Origin: Tequatrovirus LF73P3
Strand: one strand, 5' to 3'
Sequence record: OZ035756.1
Length of the DNA: 64,000 nucleotides
This document shows, piece after piece, positions 2,235 to 48,357 of the stretch (the first letter of the stretch is position 1; every line of letters begins with the position of its first letter). The notes below the pieces were generated by a model that ran no database searches, was not told where the DNA came from, and saw only the letters and a list, made by a program, of their open reading frames with translations. The position numbers and the translations under genes were made by a program.

Positions 2235-4931
2235 TCAGCCAAACAGGAAGTCTAACGAAGCTTTTTCCTCATAGTCCATACCTGCCGATTCACACATGCC
2301 CGCAAGCGGTTTAACAAACGATTTTTGGAACAAAGTTGAGTAGTCAATCCAAGACAGTACGTCAGAACGAATTTCTTTTGGAAGTTCTGTGCCTGATGGC
2401 CAAGCAATGCACTTGTCACCAAATGGATTTCCTTCACGTAATGGAAGAACCATTACCTTATTTCCATCCAAAATTGGAGCTACACCTAAACCGCTAACAG
2501 CTCGACGATAAGTTAGCACACCACGAATATGGAACGGACATTTAAATCCTGGCCAACCTTTATCATCATATTTCGCTATATCGTTCGCAGTTTTTACTTC
2601 AGCAATAACTTTATAGTCAAGTTGACGATATTCTTTCTCAAAGTTCTTGTAGTATTCTTGGACAGACTCTTCACCTTCCTGAAGAATACGACGAATACTT
2701 TCTTCGAGAGCTTCTTGTACTGCTTTTGGTGTTGAGCTCTGCTGAGTTTCCATACCCATAATTTTTAGATGCGGTTCGGCAAATCGCTTATCTTCCATAT
2801 CATAAACGTTCAGAGCATAACGTTTTTTCGCTTTCCAAAATCCACCAACACCCTTTGAACCAAGCGGAGGGCAAGAAATAGCTTCACGGTCCATATGCAT
2901 CAGATGCTCGCGGTTATTCATATAATCACATAACTCACGATATGCAACATCAATCATAGGTTCCATCTTTTTCTTACCGAACTGATTCATGAATTCAACT
3001 AAATCATTTTGTTCTTTAAAGCGGTCAAGACCTACTTTTTCAATTACTTTATCTACACAAACATATACCGAATCAGTATCACCTGCTGCGATGAAATCTT
3101 CACCATTAGTTCCACATACTTTATTCAGATATTCATTAATTTTGCGAGCAATCCATTGAATACCGACTTGACCGAAAATTGTGATAGCAGTAGCATTTCG
3201 CAAATCATAGTAGCGGAAATGAATATTACCAAGAGCACCATAAAGACTGTTAATAAGAATTTTACGGTTCAGCTGATTTGTGTTAGCAAGTGTAGCAGCT
3301 TTTTCGCATTCTTCGATCAGACTATTAAGTACAGATTCAGTGTAATTCGATAATTCGTTTAAGAAATCATCACTGAACTTAACATATCGTTCAACTTCTG
3401 GTTTAGTTGAACAAGACCCTGCACCTTTCATAATAATCTTTTTAATAGCTTCGGCATTCATTTCTTCCGCGAACATTTTCTTTTTCCAATCTTTACGCTG
3501 GAAAAATACTTTAGCGATTTCCTTTGGAATGATACCTTCTTGGTGCTTATCATACATCCATCCATTCGGAGAGCAAGAATATTCATCACTTGGCTTAGGA
3601 GCTGTTCCTGCGATATATTCATGAATTGGATGAACTTTAAACTGCCCACGAATAGTCTCAGGACTAATGTTAACCTGACGAATAATGCTAGGATACAGAG
3701 ACGTCAAGTCAAAACTCATAATGTATCGACGAGCAATCGGTTTAGGTTCAAACACAAATGCACCTGGAAAACTCTGTTTAACGTGCGAACCTTGTTGAGG
3801 AATAACCTTATGTTCACCTTTCAGTGAGTTAAAAATAATAGCATCCCAAGTTTTAATAGGACTCATTACACCAGAAAAAGGCATTTTAGCGTAATAAGAC
3901 ATACTTAAAACTAGATCGATAAACCCACGAATTTTATCAATTGCTTGAACTGATTCTACGTCAATGATGTTATAACTAATGTATCGTTGATGATTAGTCT
4001 CACGAAGTTTATTAATAGGACCATCGTACGGCAATTTACCTTTTTTGGTTTCATGTTGAGCAACTGATTCCAAAGAGAACGATGGCAAATTAGTAAATGC
4101 GAATTTCTTGTACAAATCTAAATAATCAAGAATAGATACGCCATCAATAGAATAAATTTCTTTACTACCGTACATATTTTGAATTAGTTTAGATTTTACT
4201 CGACCGATTGGAGAGAAGCGTTTCATACTACGTTCACCGAGAACCATTTTAACACGATTCATGATATACGGAACGTCAAATCCCTCAATATTCCAACCGG
4301 TAAAAATAGCAGGTCGTTTCTGTTCCCAGAGATTAATATATTCCATGAGCATATCACGCTCATTATCAAATGGCATATAAATTACTCGGTCAAGAATTTC
4401 TTGAGGAACTTCATCACCACCTTCACAGTCAAGCTTAGCAGCTAACTTTGCGTCCCATTTTGATACTGAACCGTACATTGAATTCAACAAATCAAAGACG
4501 TAAAAACGATCGTCAATTGAATCATAATGAGTGATAGCATCAATTTCATATTCTGCTTTCATTGGGTCAGGAAATTTATCACCAGTAACCTCAATGTCAC
4601 AGTTAGCTACACGAACAAATTTTCGGTCATAAACAATTTCTGAACCATATGTATCACTGATATAAGCGAGTTTAAAATCGTTCATACCGAGAGCTTCGAG
4701 ACCAATGTCTTCCATTCGTTTCATCCAGTCTCGTGCATCTTTCATTGATGGAAATTTTTGAGGAGCACAATTTTTACCATAAATGTCTTTGTATTTTGAC
4801 TCTTCCTTACAATGCCTAAACATAGTCGGAAGATATTCTACTTCACGGGTACGTTCCTTTCCGTTTTCATCAATATAACGCTCAACAATATTATTTCCGA
4901 CTGTTTCGATAGAGATATAAAATTCTTTCAT
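2235..4931 (-). CDS. 43: DNA polymerase gp43 (family B)
   Basis: 898-aa ORF beginning MKEFYISIETVGNNIVERYIDENGKERTREVEYLPTMF, essentially the T4 gp43 sequence as I recall it; exonuclease and polymerase motifs present (FDIE, YGDTDS). Confidence 0.98.
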   Translation of the reverse strand: MKEFYISIETVGNNIVERYIDENGKERTREVEYLPTMFRHCKEESKYKDIYGKNCAPQKFPSMKDARDWMKRMEDIGLEALGMNDFKLAYISDTYGSEIVYDRKFVRVANCDIEVTGDKFPDPMKAEYEIDAITHYDSIDDRFYVFDLLNSMYGSVSKWDAKLAAKLDCEGGDEVPQEILDRVIYMPFDNERDMLMEYINLWEQKRPAIFTGWNIEGFDVPYIMNRVKMVLGERSMKRFSPIGRVKSKLIQNMYGSKEIYSIDGVSILDYLDLYKKFAFTNLPSFSLESVAQHETKKGKLPYDGPINKLRETNHQRYISYNIIDVESVQAIDKIRGFIDLVLSMSYYAKMPFSGVMSPIKTWDAIIFNSLKGEHKVIPQQGSHVKQSFPGAFVFEPKPIARRYIMSFDLTSLYPSIIRQVNISPETIRGQFKVHPIHEYIAGTAPKPSDEYSCSPNGWMYDKHQEGIIPKEIAKVFFQRKDWKKKMFAEEMNAEAIKKIIMKGAGSCSTKPEVERYVKFSDDFLNELSNYTESVLNSLIEECEKAATLANTNQLNRKILINSLYGALGNIHFRYYDLRNATAITIFGQVGIQWIARKINEYLNKVCGTNGEDFIAAGDTDSVYVCVDKVIEKVGLDRFKEQNDLVEFMNQFGKKKMEPMIDVAYRELCDYMNNREHLMHMDREAISCPPLGSKGVGGFWKAKKRYALNVYDMEDKRFAEPHLKIMGMETQQSSTPKAVQEALEESIRRILQEGEESVQEYYKNFEKEYRQLDYKVIAEVKTANDIAKYDDKGWPGFKCPFHIRGVLTYRRAVSGLGVAPILDGNKVMVLPLREGNPFGDKCIAWPSGTELPKEIRSDVLSWIDYSTLFQKSFVKPLAGMCESAGMDYEEKASLDFLFG

Positions 4932-44251: not shown

Positions 44252-44527
44252 TTATTTCATATTATTGAAATATTCTTCTGCGATTTCGTCGTTATCGTGG
44301 TAAACTTTAGAAGACAGTTTAACATAACCTTCTGCCGTGAACATATTAATCACAACCTTTACAGTATACCACTGACCGTCTTCATTACCCATTACTGCGT
44401 AAGTTTCAAACATCGGATGATCAGGACCGATAACTTTAATATCATTCACTGTACGACCGAAATCTTCTGAAACACATTTCATAAAGAAGTTGAACAGTTC
44501 GCCGTAATTATCCATTTTATTCTCCAA
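44252..44527 (-). CDS. Hypothetical protein (91 aa)
   Basis: ORF directly downstream of early promoter at ~44570. Confidence 0.45.
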   Translation of the reverse strand: MENKMDNYGELFNFFMKCVSEDFGRTVNDIKVIGPDHPMFETYAVMGNEDGQWYTVKVVINMFTAEGYVKLSSKVYHDNDEIAEEYFNNMK

Positions 44528-44557
44528 GTTGTTTTCTGTATCAGTAGTTGATAGTTG

Positions 44558-44590
44558 TATAGTACCATGGAAGAACAGGGATGTAAACCA
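44558..44590 (-). promoter_or_regulatory. T4-type early promoter
   Basis: Minus strand GTTTAC-18 nt-TACTAT; near-identical to the element at ~2090. Confidence 0.6.
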
Positions 44591-44715
44591 TTTTGTGAAA
44601 AAAATTTTTAAAAGTTTTAGGGAATTCTAGGGAGGGAAGGGGCGATTAAAGGATAGGATAATATATTATAAAGGGTAGAAACTAAATGATGCCTAGAGAG
44701 GTCCAGAAAGGTCTA

Positions 44716-44740
44716 GATACCAAAAAGCCCTATCATTTAG
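44716..44740 (-). terminator. Intrinsic terminator downstream of the 187-aa targeting-sequence gene
   Basis: Minus strand CCCUAUC-UAAAU-GAUAGGG followed by CUUUUU. Confidence 0.6.
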
Positions 44741-44754
44741 ATAGGGATTTAAAA

Positions 44755-45318
44755 TTATTTATCTAGTTTAGTTATTATAGCTTCGGCAGCAGCTTTTAGC
44801 TTAGATGCGGTGTTAATACGATTTTTAATTTCAGTATACGCATCGCCAAGAACGTCGAGGCTATCAGAATAAACACTTACACTATTGCGTTCGCTATTTG
44901 AAATAGAACCTTTAGTTTTACGATCAAAATCAGTGTACACGTCTTGAAGATCACGGGCTGCCTTCTTTGCATCATCCAATGCATCAAGAGCTTTATTCAA
45001 AGCATTAACGTATTTTTTAGTGTCGAACATATTCTTAGAAATTTTAACAGGTGCACGTTCAGGAGTAGCTAAGGCAGATTTAGGAACCTGAGCGCCTGAT
45101 GCTAATTTCTTAGAAATTTTGAAAAATGCTTTATTGAATTTATTTTCTTGACTCATCGTAAAAGAACTATTATCAATGTTATACATTTCAATAGCTTTAG
45201 CTTTCCACTTAAGAAAATCGCCACGGTCTTTTGGGTCCAATTGGAAGAATACTTTAGTAAGATCTGCTTCAGATGGTAATTTTGCTGCTTCGGTTAAAAA
45301 TTCGGCATAGGTTTTCAT
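44755..45318 (-). CDS. Additional internal-protein-like gene with capsid targeting sequence (187 aa)
   Basis: N-terminus MKTYAEFLTE|AAK carries the targeting consensus and a protease-type LTE site; bracketed by terminators at ~45412 and ~44716. Confidence 0.55.
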   Translation of the reverse strand: MKTYAEFLTEAAKLPSEADLTKVFFQLDPKDRGDFLKWKAKAIEMYNIDNSSFTMSQENKFNKAFFKISKKLASGAQVPKSALATPERAPVKISKNMFDTKKYVNALNKALDALDDAKKAARDLQDVYTDFDRKTKGSISNSERNSVSVYSDSLDVLGDAYTEIKNRINTASKLKAAAEAIITKLDK

Positions 45319-45411
45319 TTAAAATCCTTGAAATAATTTATCGGTTGGTTATTAATTATTTATTACTTTGTTATTATCCGTAACAGCATTCTCTATGTGA
45401 TTCAAACTAAA

Positions 45412-45440
45412 AAGCCCCAACCTTTCGGTCGGGGCTAAGC
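45412..45440 (-). terminator. Intrinsic terminator downstream of the stable-RNA region
   Basis: Minus strand CCCCGACC-GAAA-GGUUGGGG followed by CUUUUU. Confidence 0.7.
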
Positions 45441-45742
45441 CTTGCGGCAACCTTGTCGGGGTTCCACCTGCTAAGGCAAGTGTTTGTACGAAACGCCGGG
45501 ATTCGAACCCGGTTATTAAGCAGTTGACGCTACTCAATATTTTTAAAAGGCCATATCTCGACCATATCCGAACGTTCCGTCAAAAACGCTACTCGGCTTA
45601 CGGCAAAGATATTTCCTCGAATCGATAATTCGATGCGCCGTTTCTGCTGTGATAGTAAAGAATCAGAACACAGTAAAACTGTGGGAGAAACTATACTCCA
45701 GGGAACATCAGTCCGACGACTTACCGGTAGCGACCCGGTTTC
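45441..45742 (-). ncRNA. Structured small stable RNA region (candidate equivalents of T4 species 1/species 2 RNAs, rnaC/rnaD)
   Basis: No convincing ORF on the transcribed strand; tRNA-like T-arm (CCGGGTTCGAATCCCGG), several hairpins, repeated GAGTAGCGT motif; lies downstream of tRNA-Arg as in T4. Confidence 0.4.
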
Positions 45743-46093
45743 TTAATATTCTTTTAAAGCATCAATCTGTTCACGACGTTTACGCCATAAATCAATTGCT
45801 TCATACGCAGATTCAGCATTTCGAATTGGACGGCATTTATATAAAGACTTGTGATTTTGATATTGTGTAGATAATGGAATTTTATCTAAAAGGTCTTTAC
45901 GTTCAAAGTATTCGTAACCATCTAAACCAAATGAACGATTTTTGAGAAATTGCCAATGACCATATTCATTTTCGACATAAACATAATCCGCGTGTTGATA
46001 AAGCAAATTAATTACACGTTCAGAAATAACAGTGTCATTGTGATTAAAATAAAATGTTAAATCATGAACTACTAAATAAACATTACCTTTCAT
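45743..46093 (-). CDS. Hypothetical protein (116 aa) between tRNA-Arg and the stable-RNA region
   Basis: Good RBS (GAGGAAAAT-ATG) 17 nt downstream of tRNA-Arg 3' end. Confidence 0.5.
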   Translation of the reverse strand: MKGNVYLVVHDLTFYFNHNDTVISERVINLLYQHADYVYVENEYGHWQFLKNRSFGLDGYEYFERKDLLDKIPLSTQYQNHKSLYKCRPIRNAESAYEAIDLWRKRREQIDALKEY

Positions 46094-46109
46094 ATTTTCC
46101 TCACTTAAT

Positions 46110-46186
46110 TGGTCGAGGCAGTAGGGATCGAACCTACGACCTAGGACTTAGAAGGTCCTTGCTCTTCCTTCTGAGCTATGCCTCGT
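46110..46186 (-). tRNA. tRNA-Arg (anticodon UCU)
   Basis: Manual fold: acceptor CGAGGCA/UGCCUCG, anticodon loop CUUCUAA, T-arm GGUUCGAUCC, encoded CCA. Confidence 0.8.
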
Positions 46187-46188
46187 AG

Positions 46189-46854
46189 TTAAAATTTCAT
46201 TTTTCGACCTTTAAACCATCCTTCTGGAATTGGGTCAGTTTTCTTAATACGTTTAGAAACTTTTTCATCTAATGAATGAATCCACATCATACCAAATTGG
46301 GAATTCTTTTCACCTTTTTGGTGATTATTTTTAGCGTGAATTTCTTTCATTTTATTAATAGTTTCAAGAGTATGATGCTTATTTAAAAATCGGCTATTAT
46401 TTAAAAATTTTTCTTTGTATTCAGGAGTTGACCACAAACGTTTAAATACATTTGAACCATTTTTACGATATTTTTCTTGAAGTAAAATATCATTTTTAAA
46501 ACGTGACTTAAACGATTTAGCTCCTTTTAAACTAGCGTCTTTCTTCTGATTTAGCATCTCAGGAATATTTATATGATCCCATCCACCTTCACCGCCAAGT
46601 TTTAAATTATACACATCAGGTCTATTTAAAAACTCTTCTGTGACAATATTTTTCTCGGCTTCAAGCATAGATTCTTTATCGTCAAAATATTCTAATATTT
46701 CTTTAGAAAAATTTTCTATACCATACCTGTCTTGGGCTCTTTTTAATAATTTACCAGAACCCATATATCCATCATCTAAATTTTCGGTAGAATGCACACC
46801 AATATAAATTTTATTATTAATTTTATTTGTTATTTTATAAAGATAAAAATGCAT
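46189..46854 (-). CDS. segB: GIY-YIG homing endonuclease SegB
   Basis: GIY-YIG module (FYLYKITN...KIYIGVH); lies between tRNA-Arg and the main tRNA cluster as T4 segB does; start set at MHFYLYK to avoid overlapping the adjacent tRNA. Confidence 0.75.
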   Translation of the reverse strand: MHFYLYKITNKINNKIYIGVHSTENLDDGYMGSGKLLKRAQDRYGIENFSKEILEYFDDKESMLEAEKNIVTEEFLNRPDVYNLKLGGEGGWDHINIPEMLNQKKDASLKGAKSFKSRFKNDILLQEKYRKNGSNVFKRLWSTPEYKEKFLNNSRFLNKHHTLETINKMKEIHAKNNHQKGEKNSQFGMMWIHSLDEKVSKRIKKTDPIPEGWFKGRKMKF

Positions 46855-46900
46855 ATCAGTCCCTAATAAAGAACTGAGCGTCTCACGACGAGTCATAAAT

Positions 46901-46987
46901 TGGTGGGGAGTGATGGAGTCGAACCACCCGAGTCGCAATGACAATGGATTTACAGTCCACACCGCTACCTCTACGGGATAACTCCCC
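46901..46987 (-). tRNA. Type II tRNA-like gene, anticodon apparently GUA (Tyr)
   Basis: Manual fold: perfect acceptor GGGGAGU/ACUCCCC, anticodon loop CUGUAAA, long variable arm resembling E. coli tRNA-Tyr, T-arm GGUUCGACUCC, encoded CCA; D-arm pairing ambiguous. Confidence 0.55.
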
Positions 46988-46996
46988 TAATTAATT

Positions 46997-47073
46997 TGGT
47001 GACCCAGACCAGATTTGAACTGGTAACCTTTCCCTTATGAGGGGACTGCTGCTAACCATTGAGCTACAGGGCC
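46997..47073 (-). tRNA. tRNA-Ile (anticodon CAU)
   Basis: Anticodon loop CUCAUAA, T-arm ACCAGUUCAAAUCUGGU, encoded CCA; D-stem weak. Confidence 0.7.
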
Positions 47074-47074
47074 T

Positions 47075-47150
47075 TGGTGCTGATTGACGGAATCGAACCG
47101 CCGACATCCTCATTACAAGTGAGGCGCTCTACCTACTGAGCTAAATCAGC
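47075..47150 (-). tRNA. tRNA-Thr (anticodon UGU)
   Basis: Acceptor GCUGAUU/AAUCAGC, anticodon loop CUUGUAA, T-arm GGUUCGAUUCC, CCA. Confidence 0.85.
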
Positions 47151-47152
47151 AA

Positions 47153-47239
47153 CGGAGGCGATAGGATTTGAACCTATGAGTCGCCGGAGCGACTGCCGGT
47201 TTTCAAGACCGGTGCATTAAACCACTCTGCCACGCCTCC
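47153..47239 (-). tRNA. tRNA-Ser (anticodon UGA), CCA not encoded
   Basis: Begins GGAGGCGUGGCAGAG..., anticodon loop CUUGAAA, long variable arm; matches T4 tRNA-Ser as I recall it. Confidence 0.85.
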
Positions 47240-47241
47240 AG

Positions 47242-47315
47242 TCTCCGCGGCAGGATTTGAACCTGCGACATTCTGCTCCCAAAGCAGACACTCTACCAAA
47301 CTGAGCTACACGGAG
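47242..47315 (-). tRNA. tRNA-Pro (anticodon UGG), CCA not encoded
   Basis: Anticodon stem-loop UCUGC-UUUGGGA-GCAGA; separated by ~2 nt from tRNA-Ser (dimeric precursor arrangement). Confidence 0.8.
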
Positions 47316-47325
47316 TAAATTAAAT

Positions 47326-47399
<74 letters not shown>

Positions 47400-47404
47400 A
47401 AATT

Positions 47405-47491
47405 TGGTGCGAGAAGTGGGACTCGAACCCACAAGGAAATCATTCCGCAGCATTTTAAGTGCTGTGTCTTTACCAATTTGACCATTCTCGC
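47405..47491 (-). tRNA. tRNA-Leu (anticodon UAA)
   Basis: GCGAGAAUGGUCAAAUUGGUAAAG..., anticodon loop ACUUAAAAU region, long variable arm, CCA. Confidence 0.85.
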
Positions 47492-47492
47492 G

Positions 47493-47565
47493 CTGGGAAT
47501 AAAGGACTCGAACCTTTGCATCTAGCAGTCAAAGTGCTATGCCTTACCAACTTGGCTAATTCCCA
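47493..47565 (-). tRNA. tRNA-Gln (anticodon UUG), CCA apparently not encoded
   Basis: Acceptor UGGGAAU/AUUCCCA, anticodon stem-loop UAGCA-CUUUGAC-UGCUA; abuts tRNA-Leu. Confidence 0.8.
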
Positions 47566-47662
47566 ATTATTAACAAAGGCTCTCTAACAAGAACCCTTGA
47601 TGATAGAGGGTATTAATCAGTGCGATATGAGTTAATAATAACAAATAATTCTTAAAGCATAT

Positions 47663-47950
47663 TTACCATTTATGATAATACATATTTACGATGCATTCAA
47701 GACCCAAAGGATTCTTGAAAATATCATATTCAAGAGGACCTTTTTCTGTTTCAATAAAGAAATCAAAATTTACTGTATTAAATTTACGGTCTTCCTTTAC
47801 TAATTTAACTTGAGAAGATGAACGGTCAGTGTAAACCTTTTCAACTTCAAAACATGTTAAAATGCCATAATCATCAATCAAGGCTTTAGCTGCTTCTTGA
47901 TCATATTTATATCCATTTTCAATGGATGATACTTTCGCATAAAGAATCAT
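47663..47950 (-). CDS. Hypothetical protein (95 aa)
   Basis: ORF downstream of tRNA cluster. Confidence 0.4.
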   Translation of the reverse strand: MILYAKVSSIENGYKYDQEAAKALIDDYGILTCFEVEKVYTDRSSSQVKLVKEDRKFNTVNFDFFIETEKGPLEYDIFKNPLGLECIVNMYYHKW

Positions 47951-47952
47951 TA

Positions 47953-48357
47953 TTAACCTTTATCAACAATAGTATGTGTATGGGCATTTACGATTTGCCA
48001 CCAATCGAAACTATCGCCAAATCGTTTTGATTTATTGTCTTCAATAATTTGGCGTAATTCATCTTCTGTTTCAGCATACGCAATCAAATCATCATATCCA
48101 CCGCAAGGATAGTAATTATCGCCTGCGAACAAAAGAAAATTTACTTTAGATGGGTCTACATAATAATGCTCTTTAGGATATTTAGTTCCTCTCCAATCAG
48201 TTACTTCAACATAACGATAAGAAAATCCATTTTTACTTTCAATCCAACTCCACGCTTCAAAAGGAGTATTAAAAACTTTATCAGGTATTAAATTACCTTC
48301 AAAATGAGAAGGATTTGCATAATCCCCGGCATAAACATAATATTCGTTAATACTCAT
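47953..48357 (-). CDS. Hypothetical protein (134 aa)
   Basis: ORF. Confidence 0.4.
   Translation of the reverse strand: MSINEYYVYAGDYANPSHFEGNLIPDKVFNTPFEAWSWIESKNGFSYRYVEVTDWRGTKYPKEHYYVDPSKVNFLLFAGDNYYPCGGYDDLIAYAETEDELRQIIEDNKSKRFGDSFDWWQIVNAHTHTIVDKG

Follow-up and report, generated by a model that had tools for sequence, protein, structure and literature searches.

Structure and context of rnaC, rnaD and a trna.2-family gene at the distal end of a T-even phage tRNA operon

Introduction

Beyond the last gene of its transfer RNA (tRNA) operon, Tequatrovirus LF73P3 carries some 300 nucleotides (nt) with the look of stable RNA, and between these and the tRNA lies an open reading frame (ORF) of 116 amino acids (aa). 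What are these RNAs, does the protein gene belong with them, and what might they do for the phage? We addressed these questions in a 64-kilobase (kb) stretch of sequence record OZ035756.1, hereafter the window, in which the operon is read on the minus strand, as are all window features located below. A previous interpretation made from the letters alone (the sequence-only reading) had proposed the T4 species 1 and 2 RNAs for the structured region, had been unable to place the ORF, and had considered a protein gene inside a stable-RNA unit unusual.

Species 1 and 2, encoded by rnaC and rnaD, have been known since the 1970s, and an identical gene order was published for phage T2L in 2008, so the locus carries little weight as a discovery. 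T4 RNAC and RNAD have been classed as late RNAs by RNA sequencing, with a Northern blot using an RNAC probe (PMC9697503), and both are described as being of unknown function (PMC9697503; PMC3014915). The detail added by the present analysis is a covariation-backed model of rnaC with a 6-base-pair (bp) kissing loop, spanning nine genera, and an acceptor-like closing helix of rnaD, with an ACC(A) tail behind it in most of the copies from E. coli phages.

The operon ends in homologues of T4 rnaD and rnaC

In transcribed order, the distal end of the operon consists of tRNA-Arg, the 116-aa ORF, rnaD, rnaC, a trailer, and a terminator. The rnaC homologue (139 nt, 45487-45625) aligns to T4 rnaC over 139 of 139 nt at about 98% identity, and the rnaD homologue (115 nt, 45632-45746) aligns to T4 rnaD in its 5' and 3' modules and matches the stretch that the T2L record annotates as rnaD. 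The order in T4 (NC_000866) is tRNA-Arg, rnaD (119 nt, 71053-71171), a 6-nt spacer, and rnaC (139 nt, 70908-71046), and the same sequence is annotated as rnaC/rnaD in the RB27, RB59, RB68, and T2L records. The assignment to species 1 and 2 made by the sequence-only reading is thus borne out, and we regard the region with high confidence as the distal end of a T2-type T-even tRNA operon with rnaD, rnaC, and a trna.2-family ORF. Both RNAs and their gene order are already known, and the layout is ordinary for T-even phages.

The structured unit spans 45409-45746; it overlaps the ORF stop codon by 4 nt and so reaches beyond the boundary at 45742 drawn earlier. The only ORF on its transcribed strand is a 61-aa TTG frame running across the terminator, in keeping with the earlier statement that about 300 nt there lack a credible ORF. 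When compared with shuffled sequence, 45405-45746 folds with z = -5.6 (rnaC -4.55, trailer -3.74, rnaD alone -1.5), and the tRNA-like T-arm and hairpins that had been noticed are present. The 78-nt 3' trailer (45409-45486) comprises two small hairpins and an intrinsic terminator, which a terminator scan places at 45413-45436 as a hairpin with a GAAA loop followed by a U run. The sequence-only reading had rightly seen a GNRA-loop terminator at the end of the region, but the start it gave, 45441, leaves that terminator outside. Between the rnaC 3' end and the terminator the trailer is conserved, with few differences from T4 and 96% identity to RB69.

Neither RNA has a family in Rfam. Searching Rfam 15 at E ≤ 1 across 44500-48000 returned nine tRNAs and noise only, and at this threshold rnaC and rnaD matched neither transfer-messenger RNA (tmRNA), YrlA, nor any family of tRNA-like structures. 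ARAGORN and the Rfam model RF00005 called no tRNA in 45409-45746, ARAGORN called no tmRNA, and a blastn check for host mimicry found no match to rnaD or rnaC in 5,426 complete E. coli genomes. The region is mis-annotated in many deposited genomes: T4-like GenBank records place one to five 'hypothetical proteins', or tRNA-Lys or tRNA-Phe, over rnaC and rnaD (e.g. MZ234038, MK327946, OK210076).

rnaC combines an acceptor stem and T-arm with a kissing-loop body

The rnaC homologue, which the covariance model (R1) scores at 154.6 bits, is the last stable RNA of the operon, lying after rnaD and before the terminator. It pairs CGAUUCG (45618-45624) with CGUUUCG (45489-45495) in a 7-bp acceptor-like stem with two tandem U.U mismatches, whose 3' strand is abutted by a T-arm, CCGGG-UUCGAAU-CCCGG (45496-45512). 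The body consists of a long hairpin domain and a second hairpin. Like T4 rnaC it has the acceptor-like stem, the T-arm, the internal hairpins, and the place after rnaD and before the operon terminator, and it departs from T4 by few base changes, for example one G.U instead of A-U in hairpin 2.

We gathered rnaC homologues from Tequatrovirus, Mosigvirus, Karamvirus, Tegunavirus, Gelderlandvirus, Moonvirus, Marfavirus, Mosugukvirus, and Jiaodavirus, and from IMG/VR contigs. All are 142-146 nt long, and their first internal domain occurs as two mutually unalignable sequence types. Pairing was counted on 22 sequences from nine genera aligned to the covariance model, the set used for all rnaC counts here. 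This modelling across T-even phages, which the sequence-only reading had suggested as a check, yielded a conserved and covarying fold: 91.8% of cells were paired, as against 36-45% with partner columns slid, and 24 of the 36 pairs showed changes on both sides. The T-arm was 100% paired, with two compensatory pairs. Compensatory changes also occur in the acceptor-like stem in Karamvirus, Tegunavirus, PM2, and phiKp22; this stem contains two tandem U.U mismatches in 18 of the 22 sequences and is Watson-Crick in Tegunavirus, PM2, and phiKp22.

The inner hairpin loop of the long domain (UUGACG, 45578-45583) is complementary to the loop of the second hairpin (CGUCAA, 45524-45529). These pairs were not included in the covariance model that built the alignment, and 99.2% of the cells in the resulting 6-bp kissing helix were nevertheless paired, with three pair types at each of the two central positions. 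The loops read UUGACG/CGUCAA in the window and most other lineages, UUGAUG/CAUCAA in Tegunavirus, UUGGCG/CGCCAA in Marfavirus, and UUGCAG/CUGCAA in Jiaodavirus. Because the loops are complementary in every lineage, and paired outside the model, we describe rnaC as a predicted tRNA mimic in which an acceptor stem and T-arm are retained and the D and anticodon arms give way to a kissing-loop pair. Its place in the cluster varies among lineages, being after rnaD, between tRNA-Trp and tRNA-Gly, or after tRNA-Pro. Neither the kissing-loop contact nor the conserved tandem U.U was found in the searchable literature, a search outside which the structure papers of the 1970s lie.

A repeated motif had also been pointed out in this region. 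Two copies of GAGTAGCGT are indeed present (45586-45594 and 45527-45535), with no other copies in the window and 0.16 expected by chance. The repeat is limited to one rnaC subtype, however, and the conserved feature is instead the loop-loop complementarity that overlaps the motif region.

Like the tRNA-like domain of tmRNA, YrlA, and the 3' tRNA-like structures of plant viruses, rnaC stacks its acceptor stem on a T-arm with a UUCGAAU loop, joins these to a non-tRNA body, and is probably handled by tRNA-processing enzymes. It is not a member of any of these groups, as it has no tag ORF, no G3.U70, and no encoded CCA, and has a kissing-loop body. Classical kissing complexes of 6 to 7 bp between complementary hairpin loops are known from ColE1 RNAI/RNAII and from TAR-TAR* of human immunodeficiency virus (HIV). 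Two fully complementary 6-nt hairpin loops are likewise found in rnaC, but the predicted contact is intramolecular and structural, whereas those of ColE1 and HIV are intermolecular and regulatory.

rnaD pairs conserved ends around exchangeable central domains

In comparison with T4 rnaD, the first ~45 nt and last ~22 nt of the window copy are conserved, while the central ~50 nt cannot be aligned. The shared parts are a 5' module (hairpin P1 plus GUCGUCG), a 3' module, AUCACAGCAGAAACGGCGCA, and the 6-nt spacer before rnaC. The T2L record (AJ880101) labels the equivalent stretch 'putative; predicted by 5'- and 3'-end homology'. P1 (ACCGG-GUCGCUA-CCGGU, 45723-45739) appears in the minimum-free-energy fold, and compensatory variants of it, found by eye without a formal count, are UCGGG/CCCGA in W70 and CAGGG/CCCUG in 536P1.

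RNAalifold on 14 rnaD sequences gave a long-range closing helix, a second 4-bp helix, and a stem around the variable central domain. The closing helix joins a 5' strand, G-U-CGUCG (45714-45720), to CGGCGC (45635-45640) and is 100% paired in the 14 sequences, with compensatory replacements of G-C by C-G in 536P1 and POP18 and by A-U in phiKp22. Counted on the same alignment that yielded the structure, pairing holds in 94.4% of cells overall, and compensatory changes occur in 10 of 14 pairs. Two other elements were considered and rejected: the local hairpin AGUC-GUCG-GACU of the single-sequence fold is 68% paired with no covariation and so is not conserved, and a possible hammerhead (CUGAUG...GAAAC) has an inexact core and no ribozyme family match.

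At least three cassettes serve as the central domain, a T4/RB69 type, a T2 type with a CACAG hairpin that is also present in 536P1 and POP18, and a W70/Karamvirus type. The window differs from T4 in carrying the T2-type cassette, whose hairpin, CACAG-UUUUA-CUGUG, lies at 45669-45683, in having an AUC rather than an ACC tail, and in that rnaD is preceded by the ORF rather than by tRNA-Arg. Elsewhere the closing helix is followed by A-C-C(A), giving an acceptor-like end, in T4, the other Tequatrovirus copies read, RB69, W70, and POP18; A-C-C stands in T4, RB69, and five close relatives read (P922, D5505, T2L, and BW-1 among these), and Karamvirus-type copies are without the ACC(A) tail. Judging from this comparison, a single C-to-U change in the window would remove the encoded part of a CCA-like end.

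Elements resembling rnaD occur in Tequatrovirus, Mosigvirus, Karamvirus, Jiaodavirus, and Citrobacter phage Ursula, and sporadically in unrelated phages, namely seven Phapecoctavirus-type and six Vequintavirinae-type records and Pectobacterium phage POP18. On the stretches compared they lie at 2498-2612 in 536P1 (Phapecoctavirus), 2493-2590 in W70 (Vequintavirinae), and about 2990-3093 in POP18. The copies in T4 and W70, and those of Karamvirus, Jiaodavirus, and Ursula type, begin directly behind the 3' end of an annotated tRNA, whose 3' processing can there set the 5' end of rnaD. The POP18 element lies ~50 nt after a tRNA 3' end, and the 536P1 element follows a tRNA-like sequence, GGACUUGUAG...GGUAUCGAAUCCUGCCGAGUCCCA (~2421-2497), that ARAGORN does not call. 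The presence of these elements in unrelated phages, beside tRNAs and with compensatory changes in their stems, suggests that an rnaD module has moved horizontally among coliphage tRNA clusters.

A published adaptation experiment bears on the central hairpin. During adaptation to ECOR34, phage BW-1 acquired a convergent single-nucleotide polymorphism (SNP) in rnaD (PMC12685909). BW-1 is 97% identical to the window across this stretch, and the SNP (position 1265 of the compared BW-1 stretch) maps to window position 45671. The ancestral BW-1 RNA reads CACAG-UUUUA-CUAUG, and the T-to-C change (A to G in the RNA) yields CUGUG, turning an A.C mismatch into a G-C pair; the window hairpin, with G at 45671 in the RNA sense, is already perfect. 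This stem-repair interpretation is absent from the original report (PMC12685909). Restoration of the hairpin by a convergent SNP suggests that folding of rnaD matters for fitness, and that it does so depending on the host.

Comparison with RB69 shows an abrupt change within the region. Identity is ~70-73% in tRNA-Arg, the 116-aa ORF, and rnaD, and 96-99% from rnaC through the trailer and spacer into a downstream 187-aa ORF, which points to a recombination breakpoint close to the rnaD/rnaC junction (window 44755-45625 compared). The RB69 identity was rejected as a sign of constraint on rnaC, since the 95-99% block extends through the 187-aa ORF and so reflects recent recombination.

The 116-aa ORF is a trna.2 homologue

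The ORF (45743-46093) is trna.2 of T2L (96.6% aa identity to the coding sequence, CDS), RB69ORF150c, and phrog_3355 (E = 1e-54, covering positions 1-116 of 117). The gene that had not been placed in the T4 map is therefore a known one that T4 lacks: T4 has both RNAs without it. Its Shine-Dalgarno sequence, GAGG (46099-46102), the strong ribosome-binding site recognized earlier, lies 5 nt before the ATG and ~8 nt downstream of the tRNA-Arg 3' end, with the ORF starting ~17 nt beyond the tRNA-Arg CCA. In the 2.4-kb tRNA-cluster record of T2L (AJ880101), the trna.2 CDS (CAI54242) has equal length, lies between tRNA-Arg and rnaD, and is overlapped by rnaD over its last 4 nt, as in the window; it was published by Brok-Volchanskaya et al. 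2008 in Nucleic Acids Research (PMC2330249). The window differs from T2L, which is without segB, in having trna.2 beside a T4-type segB.

By tblastn, the ORF is present at near-full length in 425 phage records, with 68.7% identity to the RB69 copy. RB69ORF150c stands directly after tRNA-Arg and before the RNAs, and the ORF adjoins the last tRNA in the window, T2L, RB69, Salmonella phage Melville, and Serratia phage LC53; in Pectobacterium phage PM2 the homologue is one small ORF beyond tRNA-Trp. In at least five Tevenvirinae genera, including Mosigvirus, Gelderlandvirus, Winklervirus, and Mosugukvirus, a homologue closes the tRNA cluster, the more distant copies (Melville, LC53, and PM2) having 24-40% identity. 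Because homologues hold this place in distant genera, the ORF appears to be an old Tevenvirinae gene that T4 lacks, and not an intrusion.

Structure prediction gives a compact alpha/beta model of moderate confidence (predicted local distance difference test, pLDDT, 74), which together with the conserved residues supports a real protein. Profile and fold searches matched it to no known family with a function, no anti-phage defence, no characterised domain, and no solved fold. Nor is a protein gene in such an operon unusual, as had been supposed: T4 has segB, T2L has trna.1 and trna.2, Karamvirus clusters have several small ORFs, and the window has segB as a second protein gene.

Expression and possible functions of the RNAs and the ORF protein

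ARAGORN finds nine tRNAs in the operon, with Arg(UCU) set apart from Gln, Leu, Gly, Pro, Ser, Thr, Met(CAU), and Tyr. The promoter role of the MotA box in T4, and evidence for a single transcript spanning the whole cluster to just beyond species 1, have been published (PMC2330249). The MotA-box middle promoter upstream of tRNA-Gln (47635-47661) is a 27-mer identical in the window and T4, and by analogy the operon transcript is presumed to begin there and would run as one MotA-dependent RNA to the terminator. RNase P, endonucleases, and 3'-trimming enzymes have well-known roles in tRNA processing. These host tRNA-maturation enzymes would cut the transcript, with RNase P acting at the 5' end of rnaC, at its acceptor stem, and endonucleolytic cleavage and 3' trimming acting elsewhere and removing the trailer; CCA repair of rnaD is possible. 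Both RNAs would then persist owing to their compact tRNA-like form, and the ORF would be translated from the piece between tRNA-Arg and rnaD.

As to function, we tentatively favour a role in trans, in which the RNAs act as tRNA mimics that engage host tRNA-binding enzymes. A more specific proposal, which we consider quite unlikely as it stands, is that rnaC and rnaD are dedicated decoys that titrate or misdirect host enzymes or immune effectors at acceptor ends or T-arms, with the ORF protein as an optional partner. In this role rnaC would offer its acceptor/T-arm module, borne by the kissing-loop body, and rnaD a helix with a terminal ACCA, and their targets could be, for example, tRNA-targeting nucleases or toxins that modify the CCA end. 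Such a role is conceivable in view of the literature on phage tRNAs and defence, in which a T5 tRNA reportedly neutralises PARIS; the searchable literature returned nothing for older work on species 1 and 2 processing or for phage tRNA-like anti-defence RNAs. If true, decoys would give a host-specific gain in fitness, which would explain both the BW-1/ECOR34 SNP and the rnaD-like elements of unrelated coliphages.

Several points weigh against this account of the RNAs. Deletions of the whole T4 tRNA region are viable on laboratory strains, and the decoy role is pure inference. The BW-1 SNP is known within an adapted phage, not as an isolated change. For rnaD, the alignment on which the structure was counted is the one that produced it, the window copy alone folds only marginally better than shuffles (z = -1.5), and its 3' tail at 45632-45634 is A-U-C. 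With the ORF and 16 further nt (351 nt plus 16) separating it from tRNA-Arg in the window, rnaD might stay attached as a 3' untranslated region of the ORF or be cut elsewhere. The evidence of discrete transcripts for RNAC and RNAD comes from T4 (PMC9697503).

The principal competing view, to which we give somewhat less credence than to a role in trans and which we rate as rather unlikely, is that the RNAs are nuclease-resistant structured spacers or processing by-products that act in cis at most, in termination, 3'-end protection, or guiding the processing of the neighbouring tRNA or ORF mRNA. It would account for the viability of the T4 deletions on laboratory hosts, for the RNAs always lying inside or at the end of tRNA clusters, and for rnaD adjoining a tRNA 3' end in most lineages, and no function has emerged in ~50 years (PMC3014915; PMC9697503). 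It fits less well with rnaC, whose constant length (142-146 nt) and kissing contact, kept through compensatory changes across nine genera despite varying position, indicate constraint beyond the needs of a spacer, nor would it predict rnaD-like elements in a few unrelated Phapecoctavirus and Vequintavirinae genomes or a convergent stem-restoring SNP under host-specific selection. That the 300 nt instead encode small proteins, as the one to five hypothetical CDSs of several deposited genomes imply, is hardly credible: the window has no conserved frame there, only the 61-aa TTG ORF and short plus-strand ORFs, substitutions among relatives keep base pairs and not codons, and the stretch is annotated as RNA in the T4, T2L, and RB-series records, with a Northern blot using an RNAC probe reported for T4 (PMC9697503). 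The kissing-loop model of rnaC, the closing helix of rnaD, and the stem-repairing SNP define precise mutants, and ECOR34 a host, with which a phenotype might show.

For the ORF, the probable reading is a dispensable accessory protein, specific to Straboviridae, on which the RNAs do not depend. A cofactor that works with the phage tRNAs or with rnaD and rnaC, in RNA binding, processing, or modification, is unlikely. Its family stays at the tRNA-cluster end in five Tevenvirinae genera despite 24-40% identity, carries an invariant aromatic/basic motif (GHWxFxKxR) and a basic C-terminal helix (WRKRRE), and in the window its stop codon overlaps rnaD; but T4-like gene order is broadly conserved in any case, so that position alone says little, counting residues ourselves gives the protein a near-neutral net charge, the searches recognised no RNA-binding fold, and the ORF is missing from T4 and roughly half of the Tequatrovirus records although these keep both RNAs (the RNAs occur in 812 records, the ORF in 425). 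Recent arrival as selfish or mobile cargo with the neighbouring homing endonuclease is less plausible still, even though the ORF varies in presence among close relatives, lies near segB in the window, and was lost with flanking tRNA genes when T4 segB homed into T2L in T4 x T2L crosses (PMC2330249). Those crosses show segB removing the ORF and not carrying it (PMC2330249), the ORF has no nuclease motifs, and it occupies the same relative position in T2L, which is without segB, in RB69, where no homing-endonuclease gene is annotated in this stretch, and in distant genera. The simplest reading of this distribution is that the ORF would be ancestral and lost in the T4 lineage.

Neighbouring genes and recombination

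The last tRNA of the cluster, tRNA-Arg(UCU) (46110-46185), was called by ARAGORN and scores 68 bits against the Rfam tRNA model. Its CCA is encoded, and it has the T2-type sequence, which does not align to T4 tRNA-Arg. Between it and tRNA-Tyr (46901-46987) lies segB (46189-46857), a GIY-YIG homing endonuclease gene (Pfam GIY-YIG; 95% aa identity to T4 SegB). T2L has at this place tRNA-Asn, the published SegB cleavage site. The T2-type trna.2 ORF is thus kept beside a T4-type segB, a contiguous combined layout seen in only 20 of 817 matching phage records, and the arrangement looks like the outcome of natural segB homing in which only a short tract was co-converted.

A perfect late-promoter motif, TATAAATA, is located within segB at 46566-46573, upstream of tRNA-Arg. 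It was considered as a late promoter for the distal sub-cluster and set aside as probably fortuitous: the motif is created by an Ile codon at a site that encodes Val in T4 segB, and the T4 gene is without it.

Downstream of the terminator, the 187-aa ORF (44755-45318; phrog_2280, function not assigned) is absent at the corresponding place in T4. Serratia phage LC53 has a CDS of the same length after its homologue of the 116-aa ORF, the likeness being one of length only. In many close relatives an additional CDS of 474 bp separates the rnaC terminator from the 187-aa ORF, for example in D5505 (3116-3692 of the compared stretch) and BW-1 (479-952 of the compared stretch); the window is without this insertion. 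This CDS is flanked by two copies of one terminator hairpin, and the TATAAATA late-promoter motif stands directly after the upstream copy.

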